The position numbers were made by a program, and so were the translations under genes. Of a DNA stretch of 38,668 nucleotides, positions 1,127-33,804 are shown one piece after another. Origin of the DNA: a virus (lineage: Duplodnaviria; Caudoviricetes). The notes under the pieces are model-generated. The model was not told the origin of the DNA. It ran no database searches and saw nothing but the letters and a program-made list of their open reading frames with translations. Where the stretch lies: positions 1 through 38,668 of the IMG/VR virus record IMGVR_UViG_3300010376_000075; one strand, written 5' to 3'. Every line of letters begins with the position of its first letter. Positions within the stretch are counted from its first letter, which is position 1.

Positions 1127-1349
1127 CGGCAGCCGCTTCTGCGCCCGGCACCGCGACGAGTTCGCGGCGATGGCGGCTGAGATCGACAAGGGCAAGACCG
1201 CGCGCTTGCGCTCGCCCGGCGGCACGCGACAGCCGCGCCCGAAGCGCTGCGACGTGCCGGGCTGCCCCGAGCCACGCGTCCCGCGCGAGTCCTACTGCGC
1301 CGGGCACCTCCAGGAACTGACCCGTGGCGCTCAAGCTCGATCCGCGTGA
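1086..1349 (+). CDS. small protein with two C-x4-C...C-x2-H zinc-finger-like repeats
   Basis: CSSPRC...FCARH and CDVPGC...YCAGH; fills the gap between terS and terL. Confidence 0.55.
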   Translation: MRCSSPRCPTDRVDGSRFCARHRDEFAAMAAEIDKGKTARLRSPGGTRQPRPKRCDVPGCPEPRVPRESYCAGHLQELTRGAQARSA

Positions 1350-3078
1350 GGCCTACGGCCTGAGCCTCACGGACGCGTTCCTGGACGCGCTCCAGTCCGA
1401 TGTCGAGACCGCTGAGCAGCGGCGCACGAGCTTCCTCGACTGGGCGATGAAGGTCCCCGAGAGCCGAGGCCCGCTCAACTTCGACCGCTGGCCGTTCCAA
1501 CGCGAACTGTACGAACAAGCGTTCGATGATCGCGAGGTCGTGGTGATGAAGGCCACGCAGCTTGGGATCTCCGCCTGGCTCGTGCGCTGGGCGCTGTGCT
1601 GGGCCGACATGCACGGCGCGAAGGTGCTCTACGTCTTCCCCCGCGAGCGCCAGCTACTCGACTTCTCCGACTCCCGCGTCCGGCCGCTGATCCTCGGCCA
1701 GTACCTCCGCACGCGCGTGCCGCCGCTCTCGGTGATGAACAAGGCGCTGAAGCAGGTCGGCCTGGGGATCGTCTACTTCCGAGGCTCCGAGGCCGAGGCC
1801 GGGCTGGAGTCCATCGACGCTGACGCGCTCTGCCTCGATGAGAACGACCTGCTGGTCCAGGCCCACATCCCCATCGCGGAGCGCCGCGTCGGCGGGCAGG
1901 ACTCGCTGGGGCTGATCCGCCGGATCGGCTTCCCGACCATCTCGGACCACGGCATCCACAAGGAGTACAAGCGCTCAGACCAGCGCGAGTGGCACGTCAA
2001 GTGCGAGCGCTGCGGCGAGTGGCAGGCGATCACCTGGGCCGACAACATCGACCTGGAGCGCGGCATCCGCGTCTGCCGAGCCTGCCGCAAGGGGCCGCTC
2101 AACGTGACCGTTGGCGAATGGGTCGCGACTCACCCCGACCGGCGCGTGCGCGGCTACCACGTCACCAAGCTCATCCTCCCGAGCGAACGGATCGTGGGCG
2201 AGTTGATCCAGGCCAGCGAGGAGCAGATCGCCTACAAGCGGCAGATCTTCTTCAACCGCGACCTGGGCGTGCCGTACGAGGCCGAGGGCGCACGACTCAC
2301 GCCCGCGATGATCGCCGCAGCCCAGCGCGACTACCTGCACCTCACCGGCTACGACGGCGACAACCCGGTGATGATGGGCGTCGATGTCGCGAGCACCCGA
2401 GCCCTGAACGCCTGGGTCACAGAGCAGGTCTCCGACAGCCAAGGCCGGACGCTGTACCTGGGGCTCGTGGACTCCTTCGATGAACTCGCGAAGCTGATGA
2501 CCCGCTACCGGGTGGTCATGGCTGCCATCGACCATCTCCCCGAGGGCCGTCTCGCGCGCGCGTTCGCGGAGCACTTCCGAGGCCGCGTCTACATCGTCAA
2601 CTACGCCACCGAGACACAGAAGGACGTGCTCGCCGTGGACGACCAGCAGAGCCGCGCAAGCGTCCGGCGCACCGAGGCCATCGACGCAGCCCAGGAGCGC
2701 ATACGCGGCCAGCGCGAGTACCTCCCCCAGGATCTCCCCGAGCACTTCGTGGAGCAGATGTGCTCCAACGTCCGCTCCGTCGAGCAGAACGAAGTCGGGA
2801 GGGTCACGGTCCAGTACCGCGCCGACGGCCCCGACGACTGGATGCAGGCGCTCACCTACGCGCTCGTGGCCGCTGACTGCTACTGGATCCGCCAGCAGGT
2901 CGGCCAGGAGGAGATCACCTCGATTGACGAGATGACCGAGCTTGGCTTCCAGCGCTCGACGCTGGGCGACCCGGACACGCCCGGCGAGTACAGCCCAGGC
3001 CGCGACGACGGCAGCTACATGATCACCGAAGGCGACGACGGCTTCGGGAGCAACGGCTACGACTACGGGTACGAGTAG
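1324..3078 (+). CDS. terL: terminase large subunit, lambda gpA-like
   Basis: VVVMKATQLGIS (gpA-type Walker A), ALCLDE (Walker B), CERC...CRAC zinc ribbon, MMGVDV RNase H-like nuclease strand. Confidence 0.9.
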   Translation: MALKLDPREAYGLSLTDAFLDALQSDVETAEQRRTSFLDWAMKVPESRGPLNFDRWPFQRELYEQAFDDREVVVMKATQLGISAWLVRWALCWADMHGAKVLYVFPRERQLLDFSDSRVRPLILGQYLRTRVPPLSVMNKALKQVGLGIVYFRGSEAEAGLESIDADALCLDENDLLVQAHIPIAERRVGGQDSLGLIRRIGFPTISDHGIHKEYKRSDQREWHVKCERCGEWQAITWADNIDLERGIRVCRACRKGPLNVTVGEWVATHPDRRVRGYHVTKLILPSERIVGELIQASEEQIAYKRQIFFNRDLGVPYEAEGARLTPAMIAAAQRDYLHLTGYDGDNPVMMGVDVASTRALNAWVTEQVSDSQGRTLYLGLVDSFDELAKLMTRYRVVMAAIDHLPEGRLARAFAEHFRGRVYIVNYATETQKDVLAVDDQQSRASVRRTEAIDAAQERIRGQREYLPQDLPEHFVEQMCSNVRSVEQNEVGRVTVQYRADGPDDWMQALTYALVAADCYWIRQQVGQEEITSIDEMTELGFQRSTLGDPDTPGEYSPGRDDGSYMITEGDDGFGSNGYDYGYE

Positions 3079-3080
3079 CT

Positions 3081-3103
3081 AAGCGCACGACGTGTGCTAT
3101 CCT
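3081..3103 (+). promoter_or_regulatory. palindrome/extended -10 promoter
   Basis: AAGCGCAC-GAC-GTGTGCTA overlapping TATCCT; CCGACCGAGGAG leader downstream. Confidence 0.75.
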
Positions 3104-7501: not shown

Positions 7502-7528
7502 GTCGGGAGCCTATCCGCCGCCACGCGC

Positions 7529-7551
7529 TAGCGCACGTCATGTGCTATCCT
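7529..7551 (+). promoter_or_regulatory. palindrome/extended -10 promoter in a divergent intergenic region
   Basis: TAGCGCAC-GTC-ATGTGCTA overlapping TATCCT. Confidence 0.75.
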
Positions 7552-9981: not shown

Positions 9982-10154
9982 CCACGGGCCTCTACCTGAC
10001 GGACGACCTGAACCAGTTGATCTACGTGCTCGACCTGCCGAAGGAGAAGGGCGACCAGGCCGTGATCGAGGACGCGCGCACCGGCACGGTGTCCTGCGTC
10101 CCGAGGGCGAACATCCAGGGCTGGCGAGTCGTGGAGCCCGAGCATGCCTCGTGA
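9951..10154 (+). CDS. small beta-rich hypothetical protein (67 aa)
   Basis: ATG 9951 after GGGAGG; ends overlapping the portal start. Confidence 0.55.
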   Translation: MGNATGTRPLTTGLYLTDDLNQLIYVLDLPKEKGDQAVIEDARTGTVSCVPRANIQGWRVVEPEHAS

Positions 10155-12234
10155 CGGCGGGATCGTCGGCTGGCTCCAGGAGACGGTCGAGGCCCGGACC
10201 GGCAAGACCGTCATCGACCAGGACCGGCTCCAGCTACTGGAGGCCTCCGATGTCGAACGCCGGGCGATGCAGAAGGAACTCGACCTGCTCGGCTACTACG
10301 TGCTCGACCAGCTTGGCGGGCAGCCCCAGGAGGTCAAGCCGCAGGAGCGCCGCCGGATGGCCGCGCAGGCCCGCATGGTCTGGATTCAGGACCCGGTCGC
10401 CGGGGCGAACATCGACCTGTCCTGCCAGTTCATCTTCGGACGCGGCGTCCCCAAGCCGAAGGCCTCGGACACGAAGGTCCAGGAGATCATTGACGAGGCG
10501 TGGGCCGACCCGGACAACAAGGCCTGCCTGACGACGTTCGCAGCCCAGACGGCGCTCTGCACCGACCTGGTGCTCCAGAGCAACCTGTTCATCCTGTTCT
10601 TCGAGGGCGACGACGGCAAGGTCAAGCTCGGCATCCTCAACCACGATCTCGTGGAGGACGCCGTCCGCGACAGCGAGAACCGGCTCCGGGTCCTCTACTA
10701 CGTCGCTCGGCGGCGCGACTACGAGTGGGACTACCAGAACGACCGCGTCTCGATCAAGGCGGCGGCGAACCTGGAGAACGCCACGAAGTCCCGCGTCCTG
10801 TACTACCAGGCGCTCGCCGCGACCGGCGACGACGGCAAGCTCGACACCACCGACAAGCAGGCCCCGTCGGACAAGGTGGGCGACGGCCTCGTCTACCACA
10901 TCGCGATCAACCGGGGCACCGAGCAGGTGTTCGGGATCCCGGCGATGCGCCGGATCGTGAAGTGGATGGCGGCGCTGAACGACTTCATGGCTGCGCGGGT
11001 GGACATGACCCAGGCCGCAGCCGCGTTCATCATGCGCCGGACCGTCAAGGGCTCGCCACAGCAGGTCGCCGCCATCGCCGCGAAGCAACTCTCGCGCACG
11101 AGCAGCCTGGCGGCGTCGAGCCTCGACAAGGACGCGAGCGAGGTCACCCCAGGCCCGCGCCCGGCGTCGATCCTCAACGAGTCCCAAGGCGTCACGACCG
11201 AGCCGTTCACCGTCTCCACCCAGTCCGCGCAGGCGCAGCAGGACGCGCAGATGATCCGCTCCCAGATCGCGTCAGCGACGTGGCCGCAGCACTACCTGGG
11301 CGATCAGTCCAACGCGAACCTCGCGACGGCGCAGGCGCTCGAACTGCCGGTGGTCAAGAAGGTCGAGGCGTTCCAGGAGCTATTCGAGGGGCTGTTCCGA
11401 ACGTTCACAGACCGGGTCATCCAGAAGGCCGTGGATAGCGGGCGGCTGCCCACCGAGCTAACCGAGGAGGAACGGGCTGCCCTGCGCTCCAAGAAGCCGG
11501 AGGAGCAGGTCCCCGGCGGGTCGGGCATGACCCCGGACTCGCCGCCCCAGCAGGAGCCAGCGCTCGCGCAGACCGACCCGCTCCACGGCGAGGCACCTCC
11601 GCAGGCCGCGCTGGGCGAGGGCTACGAGGGGCAGACCGAGGACGAGGAGGCGACCGAGCGCGACCTGGGCTACGAGTTCGCGATGCCGTCACCGCTGAAG
11701 CGCAGCATGGCCGACCTGATCACCAGCATCGCCAACCTGGCGCGCACGTTCGACCCGAACAACACCAACCTCGAACTCAGCCGTACCCTCCTGGCTGTGG
11801 CTCTTGGACAGGGCCTCGAACTGGCGGACCCGGCTGCCGCCGTCGAGCGCATCCTGCCCGAGGGCTACGTCGATCCGATGCTCGCCGGGGCGATGGGCGG
11901 AGCCAGCCAGCCCGGCGTCCCAGGCCAGATGCCCGGCCAGCCGCCGCCGCTGATCCCCGAGGGGCCGAACCCGTTCGGTCCGGGTGGACCGCCGCCGGGC
12001 GAGGGTCCAGAGGGCGAGGGCAACGCGTACGGCTCCGCCGGATTCAGCCAGAACTTCCAGCAGAACCAGGGCCAGGTCGGCGGCGTCGGCGCAGGGATGT
12101 CAGAGGCTGCGGAGGATCCCGAGTACGCCGAGCGCATGGAGGAACTGATGCGCACCTGGGACGAGGAGCTAGGGGAGATCGTGGACGAGATGCTGGCCGT
12201 GGCCGCGTCCTCCACGAACGGACATCACGAGTAG
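10144..12234 (+). CDS. portal protein
   Basis: 696 aa; DPVAGANIDLSCQFIFGRG, VYHIAIN...FGIP, PQHYLGD.SNANLATA resemble portal motifs; Pro/Gly-rich tail; directly upstream of a MuF-like gene. Confidence 0.8.
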   Translation: MPRDGGIVGWLQETVEARTGKTVIDQDRLQLLEASDVERRAMQKELDLLGYYVLDQLGGQPQEVKPQERRRMAAQARMVWIQDPVAGANIDLSCQFIFGRGVPKPKASDTKVQEIIDEAWADPDNKACLTTFAAQTALCTDLVLQSNLFILFFEGDDGKVKLGILNHDLVEDAVRDSENRLRVLYYVARRRDYEWDYQNDRVSIKAAANLENATKSRVLYYQALAATGDDGKLDTTDKQAPSDKVGDGLVYHIAINRGTEQVFGIPAMRRIVKWMAALNDFMAARVDMTQAAAAFIMRRTVKGSPQQVAAIAAKQLSRTSSLAASSLDKDASEVTPGPRPASILNESQGVTTEPFTVSTQSAQAQQDAQMIRSQIASATWPQHYLGDQSNANLATAQALELPVVKKVEAFQELFEGLFRTFTDRVIQKAVDSGRLPTELTEEERAALRSKKPEEQVPGGSGMTPDSPPQQEPALAQTDPLHGEAPPQAALGEGYEGQTEDEEATERDLGYEFAMPSPLKRSMADLITSIANLARTFDPNNTNLELSRTLLAVALGQGLELADPAAAVERILPEGYVDPMLAGAMGGASQPGVPGQMPGQPPPLIPEGPNPFGPGGPPPGEGPEGEGNAYGSAGFSQNFQQNQGQVGGVGAGMSEAAEDPEYAERMEELMRTWDEELGEIVDEMLAVAASSTNGHHE

Positions 12235-12260: not shown

Positions 12261-15200
12261 GTGGCCGTCGAAGATCCACAGCAGCCGCCACAGCAGCAGC
12301 CGAGCCCGACTGTCCAGCGCCTGATCACGGCTGCCGCCGCCGGGCAGGCCGCGAAGACCGCCGTCGGCGCTGCGGCTGCACCCGCCGTCGCGGTCACGCT
12401 GCCCGCCCAAGCGGCGGTGGGCACGGTCAAGGTCCCCGCCGAGTTGTTCGTCCACGGGGTCAAGTGGGCGATCATCCTGCGCATCCTCCGGCGGCTGCTG
12501 AAGCGCCAGCACGCCGATAGCGCCGACTGGCTGACCAAGCAGCTACGCAAGGAGTTCCCCAACGCCGACCCGCTCTGGATCAGCCAGGCCGTCCAGAAGG
12601 AACTGGCCTACGAGCAGGCGTTCCAGCAGAAGGCGATGAAGCGCACCGAGGCCTCGCTCCAGCAGGCGGGTACGCTCGCGACCCCCGAGGCGCAGGCCAA
12701 GCGCGTCAATGAGATCCTCGACCGCGAGAAGCACTACGCCGGGCTGCGCGAGAAGGCGATGCTCAACCGCGCGAAGGCGCACGTCGCCAACCAGGGGGTC
12801 AAGGCCGTCTCGCCCGAGGGCGCGAAGTGGGTGCTCGGCAATCGCAAGAACCACACGCTCGGCTGCCTCGCGCTCGCCGGGAAGAACTGGCCGTGGGCCG
12901 TGCTCGACACGATCCCGCCGCCGCTGCACGCGCAGTGCGGCTGCGAGCTTGTGCCGCTCAAGCCGGGCGAGACGGTGCTGCCGGTGGGCCAGGCGATGGC
13001 GATGGCGAAGGCGGCGATGGCGCTGGAGGAGGCGATCCGCCGCTCCGTCGGCCGGGCCGAGATCGACGTGATGCTGGCCGAGCGCGCCTACGAGGAGCGG
13101 CTGGAGGAGGTCAAGTGGCAGGACTGGCTGCACCCGCGCGGTCGCGGCGGGAAGTGGATCGACAAGTTCGGGCCGGGCGGGCACCTCCCTGGGCTGGAGC
13201 CGCACGAGAAGGCGGGTGAGGAGAAGAAGCCGAAGGAGCCACCCAAGCCCACCTGGATGCCCGAGCTTTCGCCTGGCAGCACCGTCGTGTCCGGCCCGCC
13301 GCCGGAGGGCGAGGCGTTCATCGGCGGCGACGTGCCGGAGCCTGCCAAGCAGGGGCCGATCCCCGACTTCAGCCACGTCGCGCTCAAGCTCCAGCTACCG
13401 CCCGCGTTCGGAGCCGATCACGTCAAGGCTAAGGGCGCAGACCAGGACTACATCGTCAAGGAGCACGGTGGCGACCGCACACGTGTGGCGAGCGAACTAC
13501 TCGCCAACGGCGTCTACCGTGAACTGGGCATCGGCGTGCCGACGATGGGCCACGTCAAGACGCACGCCGTGCCGGACTGGTCCAAACGGGCAGAGGATCT
13601 GCCCAGTGAGCCGCCGGTCGATGCCCCAAAGGGCACCCGCATCTCGGTCGGCGTCGTGCTGCGCGACCCGGACGGCCGGGTGACGCTGATCGAGCCGCGC
13701 AACCACTACGGCGGCACCATCCACGGCTTCCCGAAGGGCGGGCAGGAGCCGAACCTGACGTTGCAGCAGGGCGCGCACAAGGAGCTATGGGAGGAGAGCG
13801 GGCTGACCGGGCACATCACCGACGTGATCGGGGACTTCAAGGGCGACACCGGCGTCACTCGCTACTACCTCGGCGTCCGCACCGGCGGCGAGGCAACCCC
13901 GAGCGACGAGACCGTTGCGGTCAAGACGGTCACGCCCGACGAGGCCGCGAAGATGCTCAACAAGCAGCGCGACCAGGACGTGCTCAAGGCCGTGCTGGAG
14001 AAGCCGATCCCGGAGGGCACCTTCGAGGATCAGACGCCGCCGGAGGAGCCAGGCTCCGCGCTCGCGTTCGTGGGCACGCCGGGCAAGACCCGCAACATCA
14101 CCGAGCCGAACGAGGCGCTCAGCAAGGGCTACATGGCCGACGCGCTCGTGGCCAACCGCGACTTCCTCGGCCAGCGCGGCGGCAACGTCCGCTGGCAGGA
14201 CGACCAGACACCGATCCGGACGAACATGGCGAGCACCTTCGGCTACGGCGGCAGCAGCCAGCACGACTTCGGCAAGACGCCCGAGGAGATCTGGACGATG
14301 CGCTACCGGGGCCAGGCCGCAGGCACCATCGCGGCAGGCGAGGACCAGCTTCGCCAGCAGGCAGCCGACATCGCCCGGATCCTGACCAACGCCAAGATCG
14401 ACCAACTGACCAAGGCCGCAGGGTTCCCCGACCCGAAGGACCGCAAGCGGATCGCGGACGCGCTGAAGGCCAGAGTCGCCTGGATGAAGAAGTTCGCCAA
14501 CGGCGAGGAGAGCCTGCCGCAGCCCATGTCCGGCGGCGAGGCCCGAGCCGCGTTCGCTGACGCGCAGAACGACTTCGAGATCTACCCCGAGGAGCACCAG
14601 GCACTGGACGACTACGCAGGCAAGCTCGGCACCAGCCTCGACGGCCACCTGCGCTCCGGCAAGGACTTCACCGACGACGAGCGCAAGCTCGCCAAGACGC
14701 TCGACGGGCTGCTCGACGCCACTTCAGCGCCGGGCGACAGCTACGTCTACATCGGATCGCCGGGCGAGCCGAACAAGGGCATGGTCGGCAAGACGTTCTC
14801 GATGGCGAGCTACACCCGAGCGCACACCGACCGGGCGCAGGCGACCGGCGCAGGGCACGTCCGGCTGCTCGTGCCCGGCGGCGCGCGGGCACTGCATCTC
14901 GAAGACGCCGAGAAGGGCCAGCCCGACATGCTGCTGCCCCGCGACCAGCGCATGCAGATCACCGGCCTGCGCACCGGCCCCGACGGCAAGCCGACGCTCG
15001 AAGGGATCGTCCTGCCCTACCGACCGCCGCGCTCGCTCCCGTCTGCCTACAAGCCGCCGTCCGGGCAGACGAGCTTCAAGGGCTTCGGCAGCACCTACTC
15101 CGCCAAGCCACAGAAGCCGTCGTTCGCCAACACCAACGTGGGCGACAAGGTCAGCATCAAGGGCCAGTCGGGCAAGGTCATCAAGGAGCACCCGCCGACC

Positions 15201-18200
15201 GGCGAGATCACCGTGCGGCTCGACAACGGTGAGGAGCACCGGGTCCCGTACTCCGCGCTCGACGGGCCGCAGCCGAAGGGCGAGTTCTTCGCGAAGGGCG
15301 ACCGGGTGGACGTGAACGGCAACAAGGCGACCGTGACCGGGGACGCCGGGAAGGGCATGGCCAACGTCAAGCTCGACAACGGCAAGGGCTACACCGTCCC
15401 GTTCTCGATCCTCAAGCGGCTGGAGGAGGCCGAGGGCAAGTACGACGAGATCCTGCACCCGCGCGGCCGAGGCGGGAAGTGGGTCCGCAAGCCAGGCGGC
15501 GGGCTGGCACGCAAGGTCGAGCGCGAGCATCTCGGCACCGTCGGCGCGCCGTCGCCGCAGGTGCTGGAGTGGCACGACCCGCCGCAGCCGGTCGGGCAGA
15601 AGGGCGAGCGCAAGGGCGGTGGGCTGACCGCCATCGGCGTCACGAACACCAAGCTCGGAGACGAGGTCGAGCACGCGCTCCAGCAGGCGATGGGGTTCAA
15701 GGACGCGCACCCCGGCCGACGCCAGGGACCGTTCGACCTGGTCATGGGCGACAACGCCTACGAGGTCAAGGCCGTCTCCCGCTCCGCCACCGAGTACAAG
15801 GCCAAGCCCAAGAAGCACGAGGTCGAGGGCAAGCTCGCCTACGCGCAGGAGCACGCGCTCAAGCCGCACATCATGATCGTCGTCTACGACCCCGAGGAGA
15901 AGCACATCCACGCCTACGTCAAGGAGGGCGTCGGTGCGTACAGGCTCACGAACCCGGACTCCGGCTGGAGCTACATCGGCAAGGTCCCGCTCGACCTGGG
16001 CGACACGTGGGATCCGGCGTCCCTCCAGGAGGCGTTCTGGAAGGAGTTCCTGCACCCCCGTGGCCGGGGCGGGAAATGGATCGAGGGCGCTCCGCCGCTG
16101 AAGCGGGAGGTGAAGGTGACCGGCGGGTCTGCGTCTGCCGCGCACCCGTCCGCGCCGCCGGTCGCGGAGTCCATTGCCCGGCTCGAAGCGCTGGGGCTTG
16201 ACGTGAAGCCGCCCCTGGGCAAGCTCTCCAAGCTGTCCAACCAGGAGGTCGCAGACATCGCGGACGTGTTCGAGTCGGCGTTCAAGCAGTACCCGATCCT
16301 CCAGCACGGGCCGGGCAGGCACGTCGGCGTCGTGGAGTTCTGCTCCAACGTGAAGGTCAAGAAGCTCAAGAAGGGCGTGCTCGCGGATACCGGCGCTGGG
16401 CTGTTCGGCGGCGGCACCTCCGAGAAGGCGCTTACGCCGCGCACGCGCATCCGCATCAACGACCTGACGCCGTACCACATGAAGGCAGCCGGACCGCCGC
16501 CGCCCGGTGCGGCCACCGGCGGACAACTCTGCCCGGCGTCCCAGTCGTGGGCGGGCTGCACGTGGCACGAGCTTGGGCACGCGATGATGGAGGCCATCGA
16601 CATGGCGGGGCACCACGACCCGAAGCGGTACGTGGACTGGATGAGCCGCTACGGCGTCTCGTTCGATGACTGCAAGAACGTGTCCACGTACGCGGTGGCG
16701 TCTCGCTCGGAGGGGATCGCGGAACTGTGCGCGATGGAGAACACGCCCGGCTTCGAGCACCTGCTCACGCCCGAGATGCAGGGCAAGGTCGGGGCGATGT
16801 TCTCGGATCTCAAGAACTGGGATCCGGGAACGCCGTACGCCTACCAGAAGCCGCTGCCGGGGGCCGTCCCGCCGCCCAAGCCGCTGCCCAAGATCAAGGC
16901 GACGGCACCGAAGCCGACGCCCGGTCCCAAGCCGTCGTTCTCGATGCCGTCAGCGGGCAAGCTGAAGGAGATCGAGGCGTCGGTCAAGGCCCAGCCCGGC
17001 ACCGCCGGTCCGAAGCAACCCGTCAGCCAGATGGGCCTGATGCCCGGCGACGTGTTCGAGGGGCACACGCCCGGCATGCGCTACCTCGTCATCTCCGACC
17101 CGAGCGAGAAGTCCGGCATGCGCTACGTCCCGCTGAACCAGGGCAAGGGGGACGCGTACCGGTTCAGCAGCACCAGCAAGCGCCGCAAGGTGAACCTGCA
17201 CTTCGACCTGAGCGAGGCAGACGTGACACTCGACGTGAGTCCCGAGACGATGGCGAAGGTGGACGAGGTCGCGGCCAAGAACGTCGCGGCCGGGGACTGG
17301 GTCGAGCCGGATCCGTTCCTGGACGAGAACGATCCGAAGGAGCCGCTCGATGAGGCCATCTACACCGAGGCGCTGCACCCCCGAGGGCGCGGCGGGAAGT
17401 GGATCGGCAAGGGCGGGCGCATCAAGCGTGCGGTCGAGGCACCTGAGGCCGACAAGTCCCCGGTCGGCCGGATCGTCGGCTCGCTCGGCGGCAAGACGGG
17501 TGACGCGGGCTACCAGGCGCTCGCGTCAGGCGAGGCGCTCGACACCCAGAAGCTCAACCAGACCGATGGGAAATACACGGCTGCTCGCAAGCTCCTGCAT
17601 CAGTCGATCATCAACCACTTCTTCGAGAACGCGCAGCCCGCCGAGGGCAAGCCGAAGGCGATCTTCACCGCCGGTGGCGCGGCCTCCGGCAAGTCCGGGC
17701 TGGCCGGGCAGGCGCGCGAGGCTGCGAGCAACCTCGACATCCCCAAGGGCGCGGTCTACATCAACCCGGACGACATCAAGGAGATGATCCCCGAGTACGC
17801 CGAGTTGAAGCGGCGGGGCCGTGAGGACGTGGCAGCGGCGGCAACGCACGAGGAGTCCAGCGACCTGGCCAAGCTGATGACGGCCATCGCGATGGACGGC
17901 CACTACCCCGTCATCGTGGACGGCACCGGCGACTCGAAGGTCGGGAAGTTCGGGGACAAGCTCCGGGCCGCGCAGAAGGCCGGGTACGACGTGGAGGCAC
18001 GGTACGCCCACGTGCCCGTCTCTGAGGCCTTGACCCGCGAGAAGAAGCGGGCCGAGCGCACGGGCCGCAAGGTGGCCGAGTCGCTGCTGCGCAACCAGCA
18101 CAAGACGGTGGCGGAGAGCTACACGAAGGACGTGGTCAACGAGCCGGGCGTCCACGTCAAGGTCTACTCGACCGTCGAGCGCGGCCAGCCCAAGCTGATC

Positions 18201-18281
18201 GCGGAGAAGCCAGCAGGCGGGCAGGTCAAGGTCGTGGACCAGAAGCAGTACGACGAGCATCTCGCAAAGGCGGAGGCATGA
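12261..18281 (+). CDS. MuF-like head morphogenesis protein fused to multiple effector domains (polyvalent protein)
   Basis: MuF-like C..LAG...PPLHAQCGC; kinase-like fold split by a Nudix domain; degenerate VIP2-like ART; KOW/SH3 repeats; PD-(D/E)xK; HELGH zincin; zeta-toxin-like P-loop GGAASGKS; leaderless GTG 6 nt after TAGGCT. Confidence 0.85.
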   Translation: MAVEDPQQPPQQQPSPTVQRLITAAAAGQAAKTAVGAAAAPAVAVTLPAQAAVGTVKVPAELFVHGVKWAIILRILRRLLKRQHADSADWLTKQLRKEFPNADPLWISQAVQKELAYEQAFQQKAMKRTEASLQQAGTLATPEAQAKRVNEILDREKHYAGLREKAMLNRAKAHVANQGVKAVSPEGAKWVLGNRKNHTLGCLALAGKNWPWAVLDTIPPPLHAQCGCELVPLKPGETVLPVGQAMAMAKAAMALEEAIRRSVGRAEIDVMLAERAYEERLEEVKWQDWLHPRGRGGKWIDKFGPGGHLPGLEPHEKAGEEKKPKEPPKPTWMPELSPGSTVVSGPPPEGEAFIGGDVPEPAKQGPIPDFSHVALKLQLPPAFGADHVKAKGADQDYIVKEHGGDRTRVASELLANGVYRELGIGVPTMGHVKTHAVPDWSKRAEDLPSEPPVDAPKGTRISVGVVLRDPDGRVTLIEPRNHYGGTIHGFPKGGQEPNLTLQQGAHKELWEESGLTGHITDVIGDFKGDTGVTRYYLGVRTGGEATPSDETVAVKTVTPDEAAKMLNKQRDQDVLKAVLEKPIPEGTFEDQTPPEEPGSALAFVGTPGKTRNITEPNEALSKGYMADALVANRDFLGQRGGNVRWQDDQTPIRTNMASTFGYGGSSQHDFGKTPEEIWTMRYRGQAAGTIAAGEDQLRQQAADIARILTNAKIDQLTKAAGFPDPKDRKRIADALKARVAWMKKFANGEESLPQPMSGGEARAAFADAQNDFEIYPEEHQALDDYAGKLGTSLDGHLRSGKDFTDDERKLAKTLDGLLDATSAPGDSYVYIGSPGEPNKGMVGKTFSMASYTRAHTDRAQATGAGHVRLLVPGGARALHLEDAEKGQPDMLLPRDQRMQITGLRTGPDGKPTLEGIVLPYRPPRSLPSAYKPPSGQTSFKGFGSTYSAKPQKPSFANTNVGDKVSIKGQSGKVIKEHPPTGEITVRLDNGEEHRVPYSALDGPQPKGEFFAKGDRVDVNGNKATVTGDAGKGMANVKLDNGKGYTVPFSILKRLEEAEGKYDEILHPRGRGGKWVRKPGGGLARKVEREHLGTVGAPSPQVLEWHDPPQPVGQKGERKGGGLTAIGVTNTKLGDEVEHALQQAMGFKDAHPGRRQGPFDLVMGDNAYEVKAVSRSATEYKAKPKKHEVEGKLAYAQEHALKPHIMIVVYDPEEKHIHAYVKEGVGAYRLTNPDSGWSYIGKVPLDLGDTWDPASLQEAFWKEFLHPRGRGGKWIEGAPPLKREVKVTGGSASAAHPSAPPVAESIARLEALGLDVKPPLGKLSKLSNQEVADIADVFESAFKQYPILQHGPGRHVGVVEFCSNVKVKKLKKGVLADTGAGLFGGGTSEKALTPRTRIRINDLTPYHMKAAGPPPPGAATGGQLCPASQSWAGCTWHELGHAMMEAIDMAGHHDPKRYVDWMSRYGVSFDDCKNVSTYAVASRSEGIAELCAMENTPGFEHLLTPEMQGKVGAMFSDLKNWDPGTPYAYQKPLPGAVPPPKPLPKIKATAPKPTPGPKPSFSMPSAGKLKEIEASVKAQPGTAGPKQPVSQMGLMPGDVFEGHTPGMRYLVISDPSEKSGMRYVPLNQGKGDAYRFSSTSKRRKVNLHFDLSEADVTLDVSPETMAKVDEVAAKNVAAGDWVEPDPFLDENDPKEPLDEAIYTEALHPRGRGGKWIGKGGRIKRAVEAPEADKSPVGRIVGSLGGKTGDAGYQALASGEALDTQKLNQTDGKYTAARKLLHQSIINHFFENAQPAEGKPKAIFTAGGAASGKSGLAGQAREAASNLDIPKGAVYINPDDIKEMIPEYAELKRRGREDVAAAATHEESSDLAKLMTAIAMDGHYPVIVDGTGDSKVGKFGDKLRAAQKAGYDVEARYAHVPVSEALTREKKRAERTGRKVAESLLRNQHKTVAESYTKDVVNEPGVHVKVYSTVERGQPKLIAEKPAGGQVKVVDQKQYDEHLAKAEA

Positions 18282-18439
18282 CCGCGAACCACATCCCACC
18301 CGATAGCGCCGAGTACCTGCACGGGCCACTGCCCAAGTACGAGGACGGCACGTTCACCGTCAAGGGCAAGAAGGTGGACGCCAACAAGCTCAAGCCGCTG
18401 CACGACCCGGAGGCCAAGGAGGAGAAGGATCAGGAGTGA
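18278..18439 (+). CDS. 53-aa protein (MTANHIPPDSAEYLHGPLPKYEDG...), possible immunity/antitoxin
   Basis: Not in the ORF track; ATGA-coupled to the upstream stop and GTGA-coupled to the next start; GGAGG RBS. Confidence 0.7.
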   Translation: MTANHIPPDSAEYLHGPLPKYEDGTFTVKGKKVDANKLKPLHDPEAKEEKDQE

Positions 18440-21400
18440 GCGTCCTGATCGACAGGCGCGCCGTGCTGATCGAGGCACCGGCCCCGACGTTCGTGCTCAC
18501 CCGCGCGCCCACGGTCGCCCCGGTCGTCCCAGGACGCGCTGACGGCCCGCTGAGCGCCACGGGAGACGGACACCTGGGGGATGGGTCCACCCAGCTTGCT
18601 GCCGCCCTCCAGCGCCGCTATCCGGGCCTGAAGATCAAGGCGCTCTACAACGCCGACGGCGACCTGGAGCACGCCTGCGCCTACGATCCGAAGACCGGCC
18701 TGGCTCACGACGCGCGCGGCACGTTCCCGAGCACCGCCACGGCGTTCGACGGGTTCGGCGCGACTGGCGAGCGGGGCACCACCCGCGACGAGTCAGCGCC
18801 TGCACCAGCCGACGGCGACGACGCATGCGATGCCTACGTCACCCGGCACTGGGCACCGTTCGAGACCGGCGGCGCGCTCGACGGGCTAACGCCGGACGCT
18901 GACGCCGACTCGGTCGAACTCGATGCGCTGCTCGGCGGAGACCGCCGCCAGCCCACGTACCGGGCGCTGCCGAGCGCGCGGCTGGAGGAGGCGATCTGGA
19001 ACGACAAGCTGCACCCCCGCTGGCCCGCTGGCACGCCGCATAAGGGCGGGCAGTTCATGAAGGTCGGGGAGCGCTTCCACAAGGACGGTCACGAGTGGGA
19101 GATCACGCAGGTCGCCGGAAACAAGATCATCGCTGCTGAGGCGTCCGGCGTGGTGGACAAGGCCGAGACGCGTGTGTTCGACACCAAGAACGTCGGCCCC
19201 ACGCCCGAGGATAAGAACGTGCTGGTGGGCGCAACGCCTGCTGCGCCGAGGGCGCTCAAGAGCGGCTTCATTCCCGACTACACCAACGCGCAGAAGGCCC
19301 ACATCGCGAAGCTCCAGAAGGAAGGCAAGGAGGCCGAGCTACACACGTATCTCCACAAGATCGAGTCGGGACTCAGCTACATCAAGACGGCGAAGCCGGA
19401 TGAGAACTCCGTCGTCATCGACGCGGACCGTCACCAGGAGACACACGATCCGTCGATCAAGCCGCACCCCCTGTCGAAGCTCACGCCAGCGCAGTGGGAG
19501 CGGTTCGGCAAGGTGGACCAGCTTTATTACAACGAGGTGATGGACCGCTTCGGGGCGTGGCAGACCGCGAGTGGGGGCAAGCCACCGCCGATCAGTTCGC
19601 AGAGCAGCCAGTGGGCCGGGAGGTTGCAGGAGATCCAGGCGGGCGCGCCTTCCGACGCCGTGAGCATGCTCGCCGCCGAGGTGGGCGACCTGAAGGGCGC
19701 AACGCACGGTGACCAGATGTCCGGAGTCAAGGTCTTCGACGGGCTGCTGAAGGATCAGGCTCTCCTCACCAAGGCCCAGGCGAAGTATCAGCGGTTCCGG
19801 GAGCACGAGAGTGACGTGAACTCGCTGATCGCGTGGGATCTCTACAACCGGCTGGCTGCGCCGGACATGACCGTGATCCACAAGGCGGCAGGCGCGGAGG
19901 TCTTCAAGAAGGCCATCCAGGGCAAGGCATCCGTGCTGTCGGGCCTGTCCACGTCGTGGAAGACCGGGTCGTGGTCAGAGCCGCACTCGTTCGTGTTCGC
20001 GATGCCGGTCCGCCAGGTCGCGTTCTTCGAGACGCTGATGGGGCAGGGCTGGGGGTCGGGTAGCGGCGAGAGCGAACTGGCGAACCTGGACCGGCTCAAG
20101 GTGGGCGCGGGCGCGGGCTACTACCAAAACCACGAGATGGGGCACGGCGCATCGGGGCAGGCCGCGAAGCTGTGGAAGTGGCTCACCGGCCAACTGAACA
20201 AGGACGGGCAGGGCGGCGGGCTGGCGGCGAACCTCAAGAAGCACTTCGCGGACGACGATCCGTTCACGCTCGATCTCGGCACCGTCGATCTCAACTTCCA
20301 ACTCAAGAAGGCAGCCGGGGCGAAGACGTACTGGATCCCGCCCGACGACGTGATGCAGCACATCGAGGAGGCCGTCACCGCCAATCCGGGGCACGAGGCG
20401 TGGGAGGAGCAGAAGTCGATTGCGGACATGCCCGAGGACATGAAGCCGAAGCCGGGCATGATCGTCACGAAGGGCGGGCAGCAGGCCGGGACGCGCTACC
20501 TGGTGATCCAGAGCGATGCGGTCGGCAAGAACGAGATCCAGTACATCCCGCTGCTGACCGGCTCCAACGACTACGACGTGAACCCGACCGGCGGGGGCTA
20601 CAAGAGCACCAAGTGCAAGGTGATCTTGGGCGATGACGGCAAGCCGCTGTTCTTTCCGCTGCCGCCGCCGCCGCAGGAGCGCACGTGGTCGCACGACCTG
20701 AGTTCGCTGGCTCCGGCCGGTCCGGCGATCCCGGTCGGCACGATGAACATCGGGGACAAGATCGCGGTCAACGGCGACCACTGGAAGATCACCAAGAAGA
20801 CCAGCAGTCTGGTCACGATCCAGTCGCTGTCGGACGGCAGCGAGGGCACTGTCGATTCGCTGGGCAAGACTAAGAAGCTCGAACCGACCGGCGTGGGGCA
20901 CGTCGGTGGCACAGCTAAGTACGAGCCGAAGGCAGGCGCGGACGCGATCTTCGGCAATCAGGTCGTTCATCTGACCGAGGTCGGTGGGCCGGGCGACGAG
21001 ACGGTCAAGGGCGTCAAGCCGGACGGCTCGACGTTCACCACCGCCAAGTCCGGCATCACGCAACTGGAGCCGCTGCCGAAGCTGACGCCGCAGAAGGGCG
21101 ACACGTTCCCCTACGACGGCACGAAGATGACCGTCACCAACGTCATGAAGGACGGCACGGTCAAGGCCAAGGGACCGGCCGACTCCAACTGGCCGCACGT
21201 GATCGCGTTCGGTCACGAGGGCAGCGGCCCCGCCGCACCCACCGTCACTGACCTGTTTCGCCCTGGCGACTATCAGCCCGGCGCGAAGCAGAAGCTCCAC
21301 TCCTACACGCCCGGCGCGCTTGTCTCCGGCTCCGGCGCGAAGGTCCACCCCTACCAGGTGCTCGGCACCCAGGGCACCAAGACGTGGCTGAAGAACCTCG

Positions 21401-24400
21401 ACACCGGCGAGGTCAGCGCCGTCTCGAAGAATGTGAGCTACGCATCGCTCGGCCCCAAGATCGAGGTCCCGCCCGGACCCGAGCCGCACGTGGGACCGGT
21501 CCCGCACGAGCAGTGGAAGATGGGCGACAAGGTCGCCACCGAGGATCTCCAGATCGGGGACAAGATCAACACTGGCGGCGGCGCAGACTGGATCGTCGCG
21601 GGCGAGTCTACGCACCAGGGCGAGGTGGGCTGGCAGCTTGAGGGCGCGACGGATCCGAGCGTGGACGCCTGGATCCCGAAGAATCTGAGCGGCAAGAGCG
21701 GCAAGGACGACCTGATCACGTACCTCGGCAAGGGCGAGGCCGTCAAGCCGGTGCCGGTCTCGGTCAAGCCGAGCGAGTTGACCGACGTGGTCGAGCACGG
21801 CGGGCTGGCCGCGTTCGCATGGCCCAAGAGCGGCACCAAGCAGCACCCCAAGCTGAGCACGTTCCCCGAGGGCGCGCACGTCTACGACAAGAAGAAGCAA
21901 CTGTGGAAGGTCCAGCAGCCCGGCGAGCACCCGATTCTCACCGACGGTCAGAACCTCTACAAGGCCGACGGCAACCTGTACGTCAACACCGCCGAGCCGG
22001 GCACGTTCAAGCCGCTGGAGGACACGCCGACCGTTAGTGCTCCGCTCGGCTCCCAGCACGTGCCGAACTACGCCGCAGGCCTGAAGCTCGGCCAGCTTGA
22101 CCTGAAGACCGGCGACGAGTTCACGATGCCCAACGGGACCTACAAGATGATGCCGGGTGGCCAGGCGCTCTCACCCGACGGCAACATCGTCACACCGGGG
22201 CCGAACTGGACGCCCGACACGTACATGAAGGCCAAGCCGCCGAGTGGCGCGCCGTCAGCCGTGCTGCCACCGAACATCGGTGACAAGTCACTCGCGGAAC
22301 TGAACCCCAAGCCGGGTGACCAGTTCACCACTCACGGTCACACGTGGACCATCGACACGGTCACCTCCGCGCAGAACGTGAGCGCGCACGCCAACGATGC
22401 GGCGATCACCAAGGCGTTCCACAGCTTCGTTGTGCCGACGCACTACGAGCACGCACCGGAGCCAGAGCCGCAGCCCGCCCCGAGCGTTATCGGCAGGCCA
22501 CCGGCGGGGTTCGAGCCGATCCTCGACATGCAGGGCAACCCAGCGAAGTTCAAGGCCGATCAGATGCAGGCCAACGACATGGCGCTCAGCAAGGAGGGCC
22601 TGGTCTACCTGCACCACGACACTGTGGACGGCGACCAGTGGAAGAAGATCGGCGGCGAGAAGGTGGACATCGCTCCGACCGACGAGGTCGTGCCGCTCGG
22701 CATCGAGAAGGGATTCCCGAACCCCGACCAGATCTCAATGACCACCGACTACCAGGACATCCACGACATCCCGACCGGGCAGACGTTCTTCACCTCCGGC
22801 GACCCGTGGGTCGTGCTCGGCCACGGTGACGCTGGCACCGAGGCGATGAATCTCAAGACCGGCGTGATCCTGCCCGCACCCGCCGCGCAGTCAGGGAAGT
22901 TCGCGCTGGGCGACTACAAGCACGGCGAGCCCGCCGGGCCGGAGCCGATAGGGCCGGACTCCGCACTGAACACGATGCTCGCGGACTACGAGGCCGGGCA
23001 GCCAGGCGTCTACGGCTCGTGGTCGGTCAAGAAGACGACTGAGAACGGCACCGCCCTGTACTTCCACGACACGCCGATTGCCTGGAAGGCCTCCAACGGC
23101 GAGCACTATGTGACCACCGAGCCGCCCAGCGAGACGCCGCAGGGCATCGCGACACCAGCCGCTATGCAGGTCGTCGGCCATCTCCAGAACGAGCACCCGA
23201 GCGCGCACCCCGTTCCGGAGTCGGTGCTCGGTGCCATCCCGCTCGCGCCCGGCCAGCCCGGCGAGCACCCGGTCGCATCGGTCCACACGTCACCCACCGT
23301 CGCGCAGCCCGGCATCGCGCTGGCCACGTCGCTGAAGAAGGGCCACCAGTTCAAGATCAAGCTCGACGGCACGGGGGCCGAGTACGAGGCGCTCGAAGAC
23401 GCCAAGCCGGGCATGAAATCCATTCAGGCCAAGCACCTCAAGAGCGGCAAGGTCTACCCCTGGAAGGTGTACAGCGACGACAAGCAGGTGCTGATCACCA
23501 AGGCACCCGAGCCCGCCGCTGTCGCGCCGCCGCCGGACATCCCCGACTTCCACGGCAACGCCCAGGACAAGTCCATCGGTGAGCTAGGGCTGGGCGTCGG
23601 TGACTTCTTCAAGGACGGCGGGGTCACACACCAGATCACCGGCGAGAGCGAGAACACGGTCACCACCAAGGACCCGATCAACGGGATCACCTACGGCGGC
23701 ACCTCGAAGGAGTTCGTGCCGTCCTTCATCCCGGTCAAGGACGAGCCAGCCCCGTCGCCGTCAGCGCCGATCCCGGACAAGCAGTGGGCCACGCTGGGCG
23801 AGTTGAACGTCGGGGACAAGTACACGTTCCAGGGCATCGACCCCGGCTACGGCAACGAGGTCATCGCCAAGGACGCCAACAACATCACGATCAAGGACGA
23901 GCACACCGGCCAAGAGGAGACGCTGCCGCTCAGCACGCCGTGGACGACCCAGCCGATCCTCACCTACAAGGCACCCGCGCCCGCCGGTGGCAACGCGGCC
24001 GGGCAACTGGGCGCGCCGCCGCACATCTCCGAGATGCCGATCCAGCCGTACCTGTGGCCAAAGAGCGGCAGCAAGAAGTTCGATGAGCTTTCGACCCTCC
24101 AGCCCGGCGAGCAGTTCACCGACAAGAACGGTGTGAAGGGCACCGTCTACAAGCACAACGTCAAGCAGCTAGGCGACCCGACCGCCACCACGACCGTGCA
24201 GATGCCGGACGGCGGCATGATCGACATCCCGCAGCAGTTCGTAAACGAGAAGGGCAAGGTGCTCCCGACGCGGATCAGCAAGCTGAGCACCACCGTGCCG
24301 GTGCCCGAGCCCGCCACGCTCACGTCGGTTCACCAGGGCAACGACGCGGTCCAGGCGCTCGTGCAAGGTGACGTAGCCAGCTTCGGGGACTGGCACACCG

Positions 24401-27400
24401 AGCTAGCCGGACCCGAGGGCCACAAGTTCACGATGGTCCTCTACCACAAGCAGATGCCCGTCGCCTACAGCGACCCGGACGGCCAGGTCCACATCACCCC
24501 GTCCAAGTTCATCCCCGAGATAGACGACGTGATCCAGACGCTCAAGGCGGCGGAGCCGAACTACGTCAGCCCGGACGCCAACACGTTCTTCGAGAAGAAT
24601 CTCGCGGATCTCTCAGGGCCGAAGTCGGTGACGTGGAAGACCGCGCGCGTGGGCGACATCGTCAAGACCATCGGCGGCGACGTGCCGTTCAAGATCACGG
24701 GCCAGTCGGCCACCAACTGGGAGATCACCTCCCAGACCGACGGCTCGATGACGCACATCCCGAAGGACTCGACGCTGGCCATCGAACTGGTCGGCCACGA
24801 GTCCGTCGCCGGGCTGCCGCAGGCGGTGGCACCCGGTCACCAGGAGGCCATGGAGATCGCAGACAAGTGGATGAAGGGCCAGGGCATGACGCCCGACCAG
24901 GTCACCGAGGTCCACAACAACGTCGCGGCGTTCATCGCGGAGCACCCCGAGCAGCAGATCGGCCAGGCGTACGCCACCTCGATCCTCGACAAGACCATGA
25001 CCGGTCCGACCGTCTCCAGCCCCTACGGCTACAACGGCCTGGTAGACAACATCAACAAGGCGCAGGACGCGGCGAAGGTGGGCGAGCCGCAGGTCACGCC
25101 GTACATGGGTGACCCGGCCCCGCTGAACCCGAAGATGGTCGCGAACACGGCCGGTCTGCAACTCAACCAGCTACCGGTCGGCACCGTGTTCTCCACCCCG
25201 TCGATGGGTGACGAGAGCACCGGCGTCTACTTCACCCACAAGATCACCGCCAACGAGGACGGCAAGGTCATTGGTGACGACGGCGGACCGCTCGTAGCTG
25301 ACGCCATCCCGTCGCACGTCTGGGTCCCGCCGGACGCCGGACAGAAGGACGGCAACGGTGAGAAGCTCGCGCCGGGCGATGCGGTCGCGTGGAACGGCGC
25401 GGAGGGCTACACGTACTCCGGGCAGCATCCCGACGACGGCACCGTCGCGATCATCAAGGACGCCCAGGGCGACGACCTGTACGTCTCCCCCGAGGAACTC
25501 TCGACGCTCGGACCGCAGCCCCCTGCCGCGCCGCCGACAGCCGAGGTCGAGGACATCCCCTACGCCGACGACGCCAGCCCGCACGGCCAGGCGATCAACG
25601 CCGCCGACGACTGGCTGCTCAAGGTCGTGCCCACCGCGAAGACGGCCAACTGGATCCACGTGCGCGCCGCCGAGCAGAAGGCGACATGGCCCGGCTGGAC
25701 GTGGGGCGAGGCGTACGCGTCCGCGACCGGCGAGGCGCTGCCCGATCTCAGCACCGAGCAGAAGCAGGATCTCGCGAACTTCATCGACAAGAACCTGATC
25801 CCGGAGCCGAAGACGCCACAGGGGACCATGGTCAAGGCCAAGGATCTGCACCAGGGCGACAAGATCATCCCGCCCGAGAACTACGGCGAGACGTTCGTCG
25901 TCAACGGCCCATCCGACGACGGCCAGCACTGGTCGATCACCAACGAGGACGGCTGGATGTCCTCCACGATCCCGATGAACGACACGTACGTCGAGCACGT
26001 CGGCTACGCGTCAGCGCCGCCGGAGACCAAGGCCGCGCCCGAGATGCTCCCGCACGCCGCCGGACCGGCGACCACGATCCCGAACTACACCTCCGCCACC
26101 AACGGCGGGCTGGACCTGACGATCACCGGCGGAGCCGGAGGCACCACCGGCGCGCAGAACGCGACCGGCCCGAACGGCTCGAAGTGGCTGATCAAGGGCT
26201 ACGGCGGCAACCAGGACCGGGTCGCGACCGAGGTGCTCGCCAACGCCGTCTACCGCACCATGGGCCTGAACGCAGCCGAGGCCGGGATCATCAACACGCC
26301 GGACGGCCAGACAAAGCTCGCCTACGAGAAGGTCGGCGGCGACATCAAGCACTGGTCCGGCACCGACGAGGCCAAGATGAAGGCGCTCGGCCAGGGCATC
26401 ATGACCGACGCGCTCGTGGGCAACTGGGACTTCGCCGGGCTGGAGGACGACAACGTGCTCTGGAACGGCGACGACCCGACCCGCATCGACCAGGGCGGCA
26501 CGTTCATGTACCGCGCGCAGGGCAAGCCGAAGCCGTTCGGACCCGAGCCGGTCGAGGTCAAGTCGCTGCTCTCCGGCCAGGGCCAGGGCGTCAACGGCGT
26601 GAGCGTCTCGGCGCAGGAGATGCGCCAGCAGGCAGCCCAGATCGCCCAGACGATGACGCCGGAGAAGATCGACCAGCTTGTGGACGCCGCGCCGTTCAAG
26701 GACCAGCAGATGAAGGAGCAGATCCGCAACAACCTCAAGGCGCGCGTGGACTGGATGTACGAGTTCGCGGACGGCGCGCACGCCGACATGCTCCAGGGCG
26801 TCAAGCTCGCGCCGGACCCCAGCCCGCCGCCAACACCCAAGCCGGAGGTCAAGGAGCTACTCGACGCGACCGACTGGACCGACGAGCACAAGGACGCCTA
26901 CCACGCCGCGCAGGGCTGGCTCGCGGACCAGGGCCTGCCGTGGAACACGTCCGTGGCGATCCACAAAGACGCCATGGGCTACCACGACGACCCGGCGGGC
27001 GGTGCCTACGGCGACTGGCCGATGGCGTACACGTGGGCGGCGGGCGACAACGCTGCGGTGCAACTCGACAACCAGCACGCGCAGATCGCCGGACCCATCG
27101 AGCAGGCGCTCGGCATCACGAAGGCGCAGCCGGAGCCGTACACCGGCGTCCACTCCATCGAGTGGCAGAAGGCTGCCAACGCCGCCGACCTGTACCTCAA
27201 GGACCACGGCGTCTCGGCCAGCACCATCGGGGACATCCACAGCAGCGCCGCGAGCTACCACGACAGCGGCGAGTCGTGGACGAATGCGTACGAGCTAGCC
27301 GCGAACGACCACATCCCGCCCGGCGACACGGGCACGCCCATCGTCCAGGGCATCCGCGACCCGGTCGATCAGTCGCTCGGCATCACGAAGGTGCCCGCCG

Positions 27401-28617: not shown

Positions 28618-28618
28618 C

Positions 28619-28641
28619 TAGCGCTCATCATGTGCTACCAT
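28619..28641 (+). promoter_or_regulatory. palindrome/extended -10 promoter
   Basis: TAGCGCTC-ATC-ATGTGCTA overlapping TACCAT; CCCGACCGAGGAG downstream. Confidence 0.75.
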
Positions 28642-30752: not shown

Positions 30753-30801
30753 CGCAAGTTGTGATGTAGAGGCCGGGCATCCGGCCGTTAGAGTTCGCGT
30801 C

Positions 30802-32081: not shown

Positions 32082-32091
32082 GAGGAGGCCC

Positions 32092-33797: not shown

Positions 33798-33804
33798 CTG
33801 CGCC

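Follow-up and report, generated by a model that had tools for sequence, protein, structure and literature searches.

In IMG/VR virus record IMGVR_UViG_3300010376_000075 (38,668 bases, from a soil phage; this whole 38.7 kb stretch is called the window below), the gene directly after the portal gene encodes a protein of 2006 amino acids (aa), in which a MuF-like N-terminal part is followed by four unrelated enzyme-like modules, each headed by a copy of a short conserved peptide, here called the tag. This chain probably consists of four swappable modules that are loaded into the phage head via the MuF-like end, cut apart after Glu residues and docked in the head by the tag. Comparison of predicted proteins across phages showed that cargo is swapped at the tags. 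It also showed that the residue before the tag follows the protease family of each phage, being Glu in the family of the window, Asp in phages with a DUF2213 protease and, more weakly, Lys in phages with S78-type proteases.

Four copies of HPRGRGGKW were found in the 2006-aa protein (His at aa 291, 1066, 1265 and 1706), each 10-12 aa downstream of an L-x-E-[AV] motif (starting at nucleotides (nt) 13101, 15420, 16023 and 17346). An earlier note, made from the letters of this DNA alone, had listed these four repeats and a variant in the next large gene, and all were recovered at the same positions in the open reading frames (ORFs) 12261-18281 and 18436-27873. No HPRG was present at any other place in the three forward frames of the window. 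Two additional L-x-E-A sites without a tag lie at the end of the MuF part (aa 255) and at the end of module 3 (aa 1650), and each, together with the next site, would excise a spacer (26 and 46 aa, respectively). Cutting at all six sites would yield products of 257, 26, 773, 201, 395, 46 and 308 aa. One LLE↓A site (arrow, predicted cut) was also present near the N-terminus of the portal protein of the window (aa 31-34). The 3145-aa neighbour of the chain starts with a 185-aa leader that harbors LIE↓A and LEE↓A, carries one tag with a longer loop, and has no LxE[AS] site beyond residue 186. This long-loop form coexists with the short form in other polyproteins.

Relatives were collected by portal similarity (21 loci at 68-83% identity) and by the exact tag pattern (34 stretches), and the records of five of them (107-125 kb, complete or near-complete, two with terminal repeats) were read whole. 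These five encoded a tail sheath and a PF25209 capsid protein, and carried tags on several genes per genome, ahead of different cargo (CCA-adding/HD, DUF7178, GNAT, cytidylate kinase, zeta kinase, ADP-ribosyltransferase (ART), peptidoglycan-binding and HicA). Homology to the chain of the window stopped at the tags: eight relatives shared the MuF part alone, ending at aa 300-304; relatives L010 and L020 passed directly from module 1 to module 4, with the nuclease and zincin modules (2 and 3) absent and the sites kept; relative L037 shared exactly module 3 (aa 1254-1654); and module 4 was also found on other carriers in L010, L020 and L042. Tag and cut zones, which make up 9.7% of the 2006-aa protein, contained 19 of the 24 internal alignment ends (termini, truncated contigs, one duplicate and kinase-paralogue matches excluded), a count to be read with the non-independence of these ends and the attraction of alignments by the conserved tag itself. 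An independent soil study of 2025 supplied another contig, which is otherwise collinear with most of this stretch; its homology was lost at 15428, the final base of the Glu codon in LEE↓A at tag 2, and module 3 resumed after about 790 letters, compared with about 720 in the window. A possible source run agreed with the window without a single difference, and no RNA data set was listed as holding it. The earlier note's proposal that effectors are added as cassettes held in that tags mark where relatives swap cargo.

Homology breaks at the tags would also be expected if the repeat served chiefly as a joint for recombination or had been left behind by the duplication of cassettes, with the peptide as a neutral linker. 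The copies in the chain are 60-74% identical in DNA over 68 nt, and the upstream motif is common to the copies of one chain, a pattern that duplication would produce as well. Against such an origin, which is most improbable, the 27-nt cores of the four copies displayed 22 synonymous and no non-synonymous differences over the six pairs, as had been claimed from the letters alone. Moreover, the same peptide recurs across genomes of 32-72% G+C (152 distinct tags, from at least 127 stretches matching a tag-only pattern), and the upstream motif recurs in scaffold proteins, away from tags.

A candidate for the enzyme that cuts these sites was found in the relatives. Their protease-scaffold protein (473-501 aa) is encoded upstream of the capsid gene (51134-52582 in relative G003) and harbored 8-9 LxE[AS] sites in all five genomes, where shuffled sequences gave means of 0.8-1.0 and none of 2000 shuffles reached the observed number. 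The protease-scaffold held 18.3 sites per 1000 aa, against 1.09 across 851 other proteins and none in the sheath. All 120 listed homologues had at least five sites (median 9 vs 0.8), and LxEA was the top unsupervised motif in the scaffolds of the family (32 vs 3.3). The protease domain (aa 33-200 in G003) is N-terminal, flanked by LxE[AS] sites, with H52, S121 and D152 invariant in 82 sequences. Its model (pLDDT 89.5) was closest to T4 gp21 (5jbl; VIA-align Z 9.2, root-mean-square deviation 3.4, 126 residues aligned), followed by herpesvirus proteases (Z 6.5 to 1vzv), which Foldseek ranked first, not significantly (E >0.04). The relatives' protease has a gp21-like predicted fold and a putative Glu-specific activity. 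No Pfam or NCBIfam match and no match among cultured phages was obtained for the protease-scaffold, and searches of PDB sequences with the protease profile and the capsid protein returned nothing significant. Among 120 homologues of the capsid protein, 119 carried [LM]xE[AS] within the N-terminal 45 aa, and the Pfam capsid domain of the relatives' protein begins at residue 31, directly after LEE↓A. From these distributions we infer that the relatives' protease cuts L-x-E-[AS] sites. As the earlier note had predicted, a prohead protease co-occurs with the tags in this family: it resembles T4 gp21, its scaffold part is rich in LxE[AS], and its Glu specificity is a prediction.

The tag is much more widespread than this family. 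Its consensus, [WFY]-x-E-x-[KL]-H-P-R-[DG]-x-x-G-[KRQE]-[FW], gave a profile that matched 4,514 protein clusters (50% identity), the best of which held 20 copies in 7,334 aa. No Pfam family covers the tag (three chance rows among 100 members), the unnamed PHROGs 30637 and 15528 contain it, and the tag profile had no significant match in the PDB (best row a tail protein, E 0.88). Tags are spaced by at least 71 aa (median 273). A fixed Arg and fixed G-[KRQE]-[FW] ends surround a loop of variable length, which suggests a small hairpin. As anticipated, the tag preceded varied effector domains, including ART, Nudix, GNAT, PBECR, 2H, kinase, zincin, LPD3 and LPD13; SAM lyases, 2H phosphoesterases, tRNA-repair enzymes and ARTs turn up behind tags. 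Tagged modules ride not only on MuF-like parts but also on the portal, on the protease-scaffold or on no carrier. Cultured phages with the tag include Gordonia phage GodonK (gp67) and Pseudomonas phage Orimi01 (a portal-ART fusion).

Protease families were searched in 48 of 50 contigs chosen from about 110 (the longer ones, leaving out most cases of tags at start codons), with strong DUF2213 matches in 18 and weak ones in 2, S78_2 in 8 and S78 in 4. For the 10 residues preceding each tag, the family of the window had [LM]xE in 57 of 76 cases (background 5%). In DUF2213 phages, Asp preceded 29 of 29 tags (background 40%) and [AG]xD 22 of 29 (background 10%), while [LVITM]xK preceded 14 of 28 tags in S78-type phages (background 11%). 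Counts across classes were near background, any Asp excepted. The scaffolds of the DUF2213 group yielded AxDA as unsupervised motif (44 vs 13.6). Per genome, pre-tag class and protease class matched in 24 of 35 cases (permutation mean 10.0, reached in 0 of 20000). Both records of the broad set with a pre-tag Glu carried a distant homologue of the family protease, compared with none of 13 other virus records, in a search made after such a protease had been predicted to occur there. Among 130 proteins with at least three tags, copies in the same chain shared their upstream class more often than shuffled ones (0.51 vs 0.39, standard deviation 0.01), and single lineages displayed private upstream motifs (x-x-F-S, L-x-L). 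An experimental reference point for interpreting motifs of the scaffold as sites of cutting is given by the Pbunavirus phages, which carry a distant relative of the DUF2213 protease: their capsid protein has A-M-D-S at 62-65, just before residue 66, where the solved E217 chain starts, and the N-terminal part of the E217 capsid protein is described as cleaved or disordered (PMC10329688). L-x-E is accordingly best read, by comparison between families, as a local predicted protease site and not as part of the tag. The earlier note had treated it as part of the repeat unit; in other phages A-x-D, hydrophobic-x-K or a start codon takes its place. Its interpretation is supported overall by these comparisons and too narrow on L-x-E.

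In 16 records the tag lay just 1-3 residues after a start codon (ATG or GTG), in most cases preceded by a Shine-Dalgarno-like site. A portal gene lay within about 6 kb in 9 of 12 such loci checked, and the cargo included LPD13 and PBECR domains. None of the 16 records matched S78, S78_2 or DUF2213 (one weak ClpP match fell below the cut-off), and 9 of them were at least 90% complete. Two records of the same batch with DUF2213 had Asp before the tag. Together, the protease-matched sites before tags and the tags at start codons in records without protease matches suggest, as the simplest rule, that the tag likely has to become N-terminal, which cutting would achieve in phages with a protease and translation in those for which no protease was seen. 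These phages were not called SPP1-like, PF05133 being found in only 2 of 18 portals.

Tags at start codons, where there is nothing to cut, also bear on a purely auxiliary role, in which the tag would be a structured prime-side element that presents the cut site to the protease and has no later function. The position of the tag, about 0-6 residues from the predicted cut in most copies, would suit this role. It is nevertheless very improbable, as scaffold and capsid sites have no tag and the tag is unchanged across unrelated protease families.

Under the preferred reading, in which cut modules are docked by their tags, the chain would be synthesized late as one product and would enter the prohead through its MuF-like part; SPP1 gp7 is described as recruited by the portal (PMC6316719). 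The head-maturation protease would cut after the Glu of L-x-E-[AV], spacers and scaffold pieces would be lost, and each freed module would keep the tag at its new N-terminus and be held by it in the head. Modules would be ejected with the DNA and would act on host nucleotides, nucleic acids or proteins. Cleavage of the chain at L-x-E-[AV] is quite probable, as is, separately, the location of the chain in the virion, and the tag likely has a job that needs a free N-terminal position. That this job consists in docking modules inside the head, on its shell, portal or core, is a tentative choice among the options, one that we hold with somewhat less than even confidence. Docking is favored because one binding event would cover both the retention of tagged modules while scaffold fragments leave and the recruitment of tagged proteins without a carrier, and because the tag is mostly acidic (net charge below zero in 355 of 519 tags from the 150 best multi-tag proteins). 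A predicted complex between a tag peptide and mature capsid protein scored 0.00, which gives no evidence either way.

The acidic charge of most tags stands against the main rival, in which the chain is cut and the tag tethers each module to DNA: the R-x-x-x-G-[KRQ]-[FW] end would grip the minor groove of the packaged genome, keep the module in the head and drag it into the cell. Some tags (HPRGEGGRF) resemble the GXGGRF motif described as the minor-groove reader of NF-YA (PMC11802806), DNA is the sole partner common to all tagged phages, and the tag of the window's family is Arg-rich. Such a tether is unlikely: it leaves the entry of carrier-less proteins into the prohead before the DNA unexplained, and no NF-YA chain in the PDB was matched by the tag profile at E up to 10.

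Several observations weigh against the cut-and-dock reading. No capsid or protease gene was found in the 38.7 kb of the window, and the evidence on these two genes is drawn from relatives with 68-73% identical portals, from which we infer that the phage of the window also encodes their protease. The first tagged site has a rare P1' Val (L-x-E-V 35 vs 1110 with Ala/Ser in scaffolds). In the family, 19 of 76 tags have no [LM]xE within 10 aa, a finding that had been named beforehand as one that would count against the idea; about 10 of these belong to a peptidoglycan-binding protein, close to its beginning, 3 belong to HicA and 5 have V/I/T-x-E, most of the 19 lying near a natural N-terminus or having V/I/T-x-E. 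The 50 records were picked by hand, class patterns were chosen after the sequences had been seen and related genomes are not independent. The per-genome matches split into 14 of 18, 4 of 11 and 6 of 6, the Lys class (4 of 11) being weak, and the S78-group scaffolds yielded no unsupervised motif, with an explicit count of 32 vs 17 that was significant in 3 of 11 protease ORFs. Absent Pfam matches are no proof that the start-codon records have no protease, as the protease of the window's own family escapes Pfam. The conservation of the tag across phages with very different capsid proteins is hard to reconcile with a specific protein partner. Lastly, LxE[AS] sites were predicted to be depleted inside cargo and were not (16 vs 13.6 expected in 40 non-redundant modules), several of the 16 looking like untagged junctions.

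Undepleted sites would fit a chain that the head protease does not cut. Such a chain would be injected or active in one piece, or its own zincin would process it, and the tag would bind a conserved host factor after entry. Zincin autoprocessing is proposed by Iyer et al. 2017, who also cite polyvalent proteins packaged uncut (PMC5512222), and module 3 is a probable zincin. This alternative is highly unlikely, since L010 and L020 keep the sites without a zincin module and since the pre-tag residue tracks the head protease family.

Prior work has described polyvalent proteins, MuF fusions and head processing with Glu specificity. Phage-type polyvalent proteins and effectors fused to MuF or portal proteins are described in Iyer et al. 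2017 (PMC5512222) and Iyer et al. 2022 (PMC9503650), and share with the present chain the many unrelated conflict domains in one polypeptide beside head genes and the same cargo types. The chain of the window has at least two such domains (Nudix and zeta kinase above cut-off, the others being leads), lies next to the portal gene and varies in cargo architecture among relatives. Release by a peptidase is proposed for polyvalent proteins, in comparison with viral polyproteins (PMC5512222); there, embedded zincins are the proposed cutters, whereas here a site of head-protease type is combined with a conserved tag that is retained. The main text of Iyer et al. 2017 names no junction motif ('HPR' 0 matches), and its supplementary files may list one.

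T4 gp21 is described as cutting after L/I-x-E and shredding the scaffold, with a capsid targeting sequence on IPI-III and Alt (PMC9026906), and a comparable head protease is SPN3US gp245 (PMC10052503). Common to these systems and, as predicted, to the present one are the protease fold, the Glu in L/I-x-E, a fragmented scaffold, and cargo that is trimmed in the head and ejected; as in T4, scaffold, capsid protein and cargo of the relatives share the site. In T4, however, the signal is N-terminal to the cut and discarded, whereas the conserved peptide here follows the predicted cut and would stay on the product. Apart from this, the present system would resemble the processing of T4 internal proteins, transferred to polyvalent proteins. 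Known T4-type substrates lose end propeptides, whereas one chain here would give several enzymes, and the head module is PF25209/Mu-like, not T4-like. MuF polymorphic toxins (PMC12226406, PMC11699363, PMC6316719) likewise have a MuF-like N-terminal part right after the portal gene and variable C-terminal cargo, but as single toxins with immunity genes, unlike the four tagged modules here, for which no immunity gene was identified. A precedent for docking in the head interior is P1 DarA-Hdf, anti-defence cargo described as binding the inner capsid surface and DNA and as gone after ejection (PMC12810830), with folded domains rather than a repeated 14-residue tag. Our literature search returned no description of the tag or of a protease-matched junction, with the external files of Iyer et al. 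2017 as a place where the motif may be listed.

It is conceivable, if still somewhat doubtful, that the tag is a universal stand-alone head-cargo signal in thousands of unrelated tailed phages, such that beginning with the tag suffices for recruitment to the prohead, retention and ejection. If so, internal copies would be made N-termini by whatever maturation protease the phage owns, phages would exchange anti-defence enzymes as plug-in cassettes, and the processing of chains with up to 20 of them would resemble that of viral polyproteins. How phages select, retain and eject head enzymes is known for few cases such as T4, and the tag with its protease-matched site would explain the processing of polyvalent proteins. 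The tag rule would split thousands of unannotated giant ORFs into functional units, opening a route to new anti-defence enzymes, and sequence could reveal what uncharacterised head proteases, DUF2213 among them, are specific for.

Table 1. Features of the window (arrow, predicted cut)
Feature	Position	Strand	Basis or remark
Terminase large subunit	1324..3078	+	phrog_675, E 1e-84
Portal protein	10144..12234	+	phrog_10963, E 5e-27
2006-aa polyprotein: MuF-like carrier and four tagged modules	12261..18281	+	ORF directly after portal
MuF-like N-terminal carrier, ends LEE↓A (aa 255-258)	12261..13031	+	TIGR01641 below cut-off; present in all relatives
Predicted cut site LEE↓V and tag 1	13101..13157	+	
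Module 1 (773 aa)	13110..15428	+	Kinase-like domain split by Nudix, ART-like part, SH3/KOW-like barrels
Nudix domain in module 1 (aa 459-573)	13635-13979	+	Pfam E 2e-14, passes cut-off
ART-like part of module 1, weak	14784-14969	+	PF03496, E 0.002
SH3/KOW-like barrels of module 1, weak	15120-15428	+	
Predicted cut site LEE↓A and tag 2	15420..15482	+	
Module 2 (201 aa), probable PD-(D/E)xK nuclease	15429..16031	+	Atlas lead only
Predicted cut site LQE↓A and tag 3	16023..16079	+	
Module 3 (395 aa), probable zincin metallopeptidase, ends LSE↓A	16032..17216	+	Lead
Acidic spacer (46 aa, net charge -11) between two predicted cut sites	17217..17354	+	
Predicted cut site LDE↓A and tag 4	17346..17402	+	
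Module 4 (308 aa), zeta-toxin-like P-loop kinase	17355..18278	+	PF06414, E 2e-24
53-aa ORF between the two large genes	18278..18439	+	Gene call
3145-aa neighbour	18436..27873	+	Kinase-like domain near 26263-26805
Predicted cut site LEE↓A and long-loop tag variant LEEA...HPRWPAGTPHKGGQF	18982..19056	+	

Of the domain labels first given to the 2006-aa chain, Nudix and the zeta-toxin kinase (17631-18128, aa 1791-1956) pass Pfam cut-offs, whereas the others are weak hits, leads or motif calls. The MuF label is weak (TIGR01641 E 0.012, 16 bits vs a cut-off of 39.65; no Pfam match for this part, PF04233 not being hit), with a Cys/His motif and the gene position that fit. Module 2 has an atlas score of 0.90 for PD-(D/E)xK, the family appearing on 33% of members, and module 3 one of 0.94 for zincins (ATLF 17%, M90 20%), with HELGH in its sequence. 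The kinase label of module 1 is motif-based. A fold of this module from an 8-row alignment had a mean pLDDT of 40 (below 30 in the tag region) and was not used. The kinase-like domain had no significant match among PDB sequences, and a direct comparison of module 1 with Pfam-labelled PI3/4-kinase cargo failed, the kinase profile not reaching such proteins.

This kinase-like domain occurs twice in the window, in the MuF chain (13400-14520, split by Nudix) and in the 3145-aa neighbour (26263-26805), and was also found after tags in DUF2213 phages and in GodonK gp67. The copy in the MuF chain has no Asp in its I-D-x-G motif in all relatives seen, while the paralogue in the neighbour has it, and the former may be a pseudokinase. 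The 3145-aa neighbour had no significant Pfam or PHROG match, is variable among relatives and is apparently built of many small barrel-like repeats. The 53-aa ORF in front of it, without a match in a Pfam search, is possibly an immunity or accessory gene.

Some tagged proteins of other phages carried cargo unexpected in a head, namely SAM lyase and topoisomerase IB modules (L122:5041-5532, L146:7704-8117, L120:6528-7388 and L130:2914-3774). In Orimi01 (L243:2270-4381, annotated hypothetical), an ADP-ribosyltransferase domain is fused to the portal, with an A-S-D site and a tag in between, and the DUF2213 gene and the capsid leader contain A-x-D sites. GodonK gp67 (L210:11935-16374, 1479 aa, after the portal) has its tag at residue 31 with L-T-A-A upstream, and nearby head genes display similar L-x-A-[SG] motifs, perhaps pointing to an Ala-specific protease class. 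The protein P0121 (7,334 aa) has 20 tags and P0122 (5,313 aa) has 17; each is encoded on a contig of 409,570 bases, and both have a private upstream Phe-Ser motif. In relative L054 (13972-14807; G003 32972-33810), two small basic genes beside a tagged peptidoglycan-binding gene share with it a 30-aa helical motif starting with L-x-E-A, possibly a second cargo tag.

Elsewhere in the window, a conserved and partly palindromic motif, TAGCGC...CATGTGCTA, with a -10-like hexamer after it, was located between genes, 5' of three separate ones (3080-3102, 7528-7550 and 28618-28640) and looks like a phage promoter or operator. A lysis region at 30736-32394 encodes two enzymes, an M15 peptidase and a GH19 endolysin; after it come 3-4 copies of a common C-terminal repeat.

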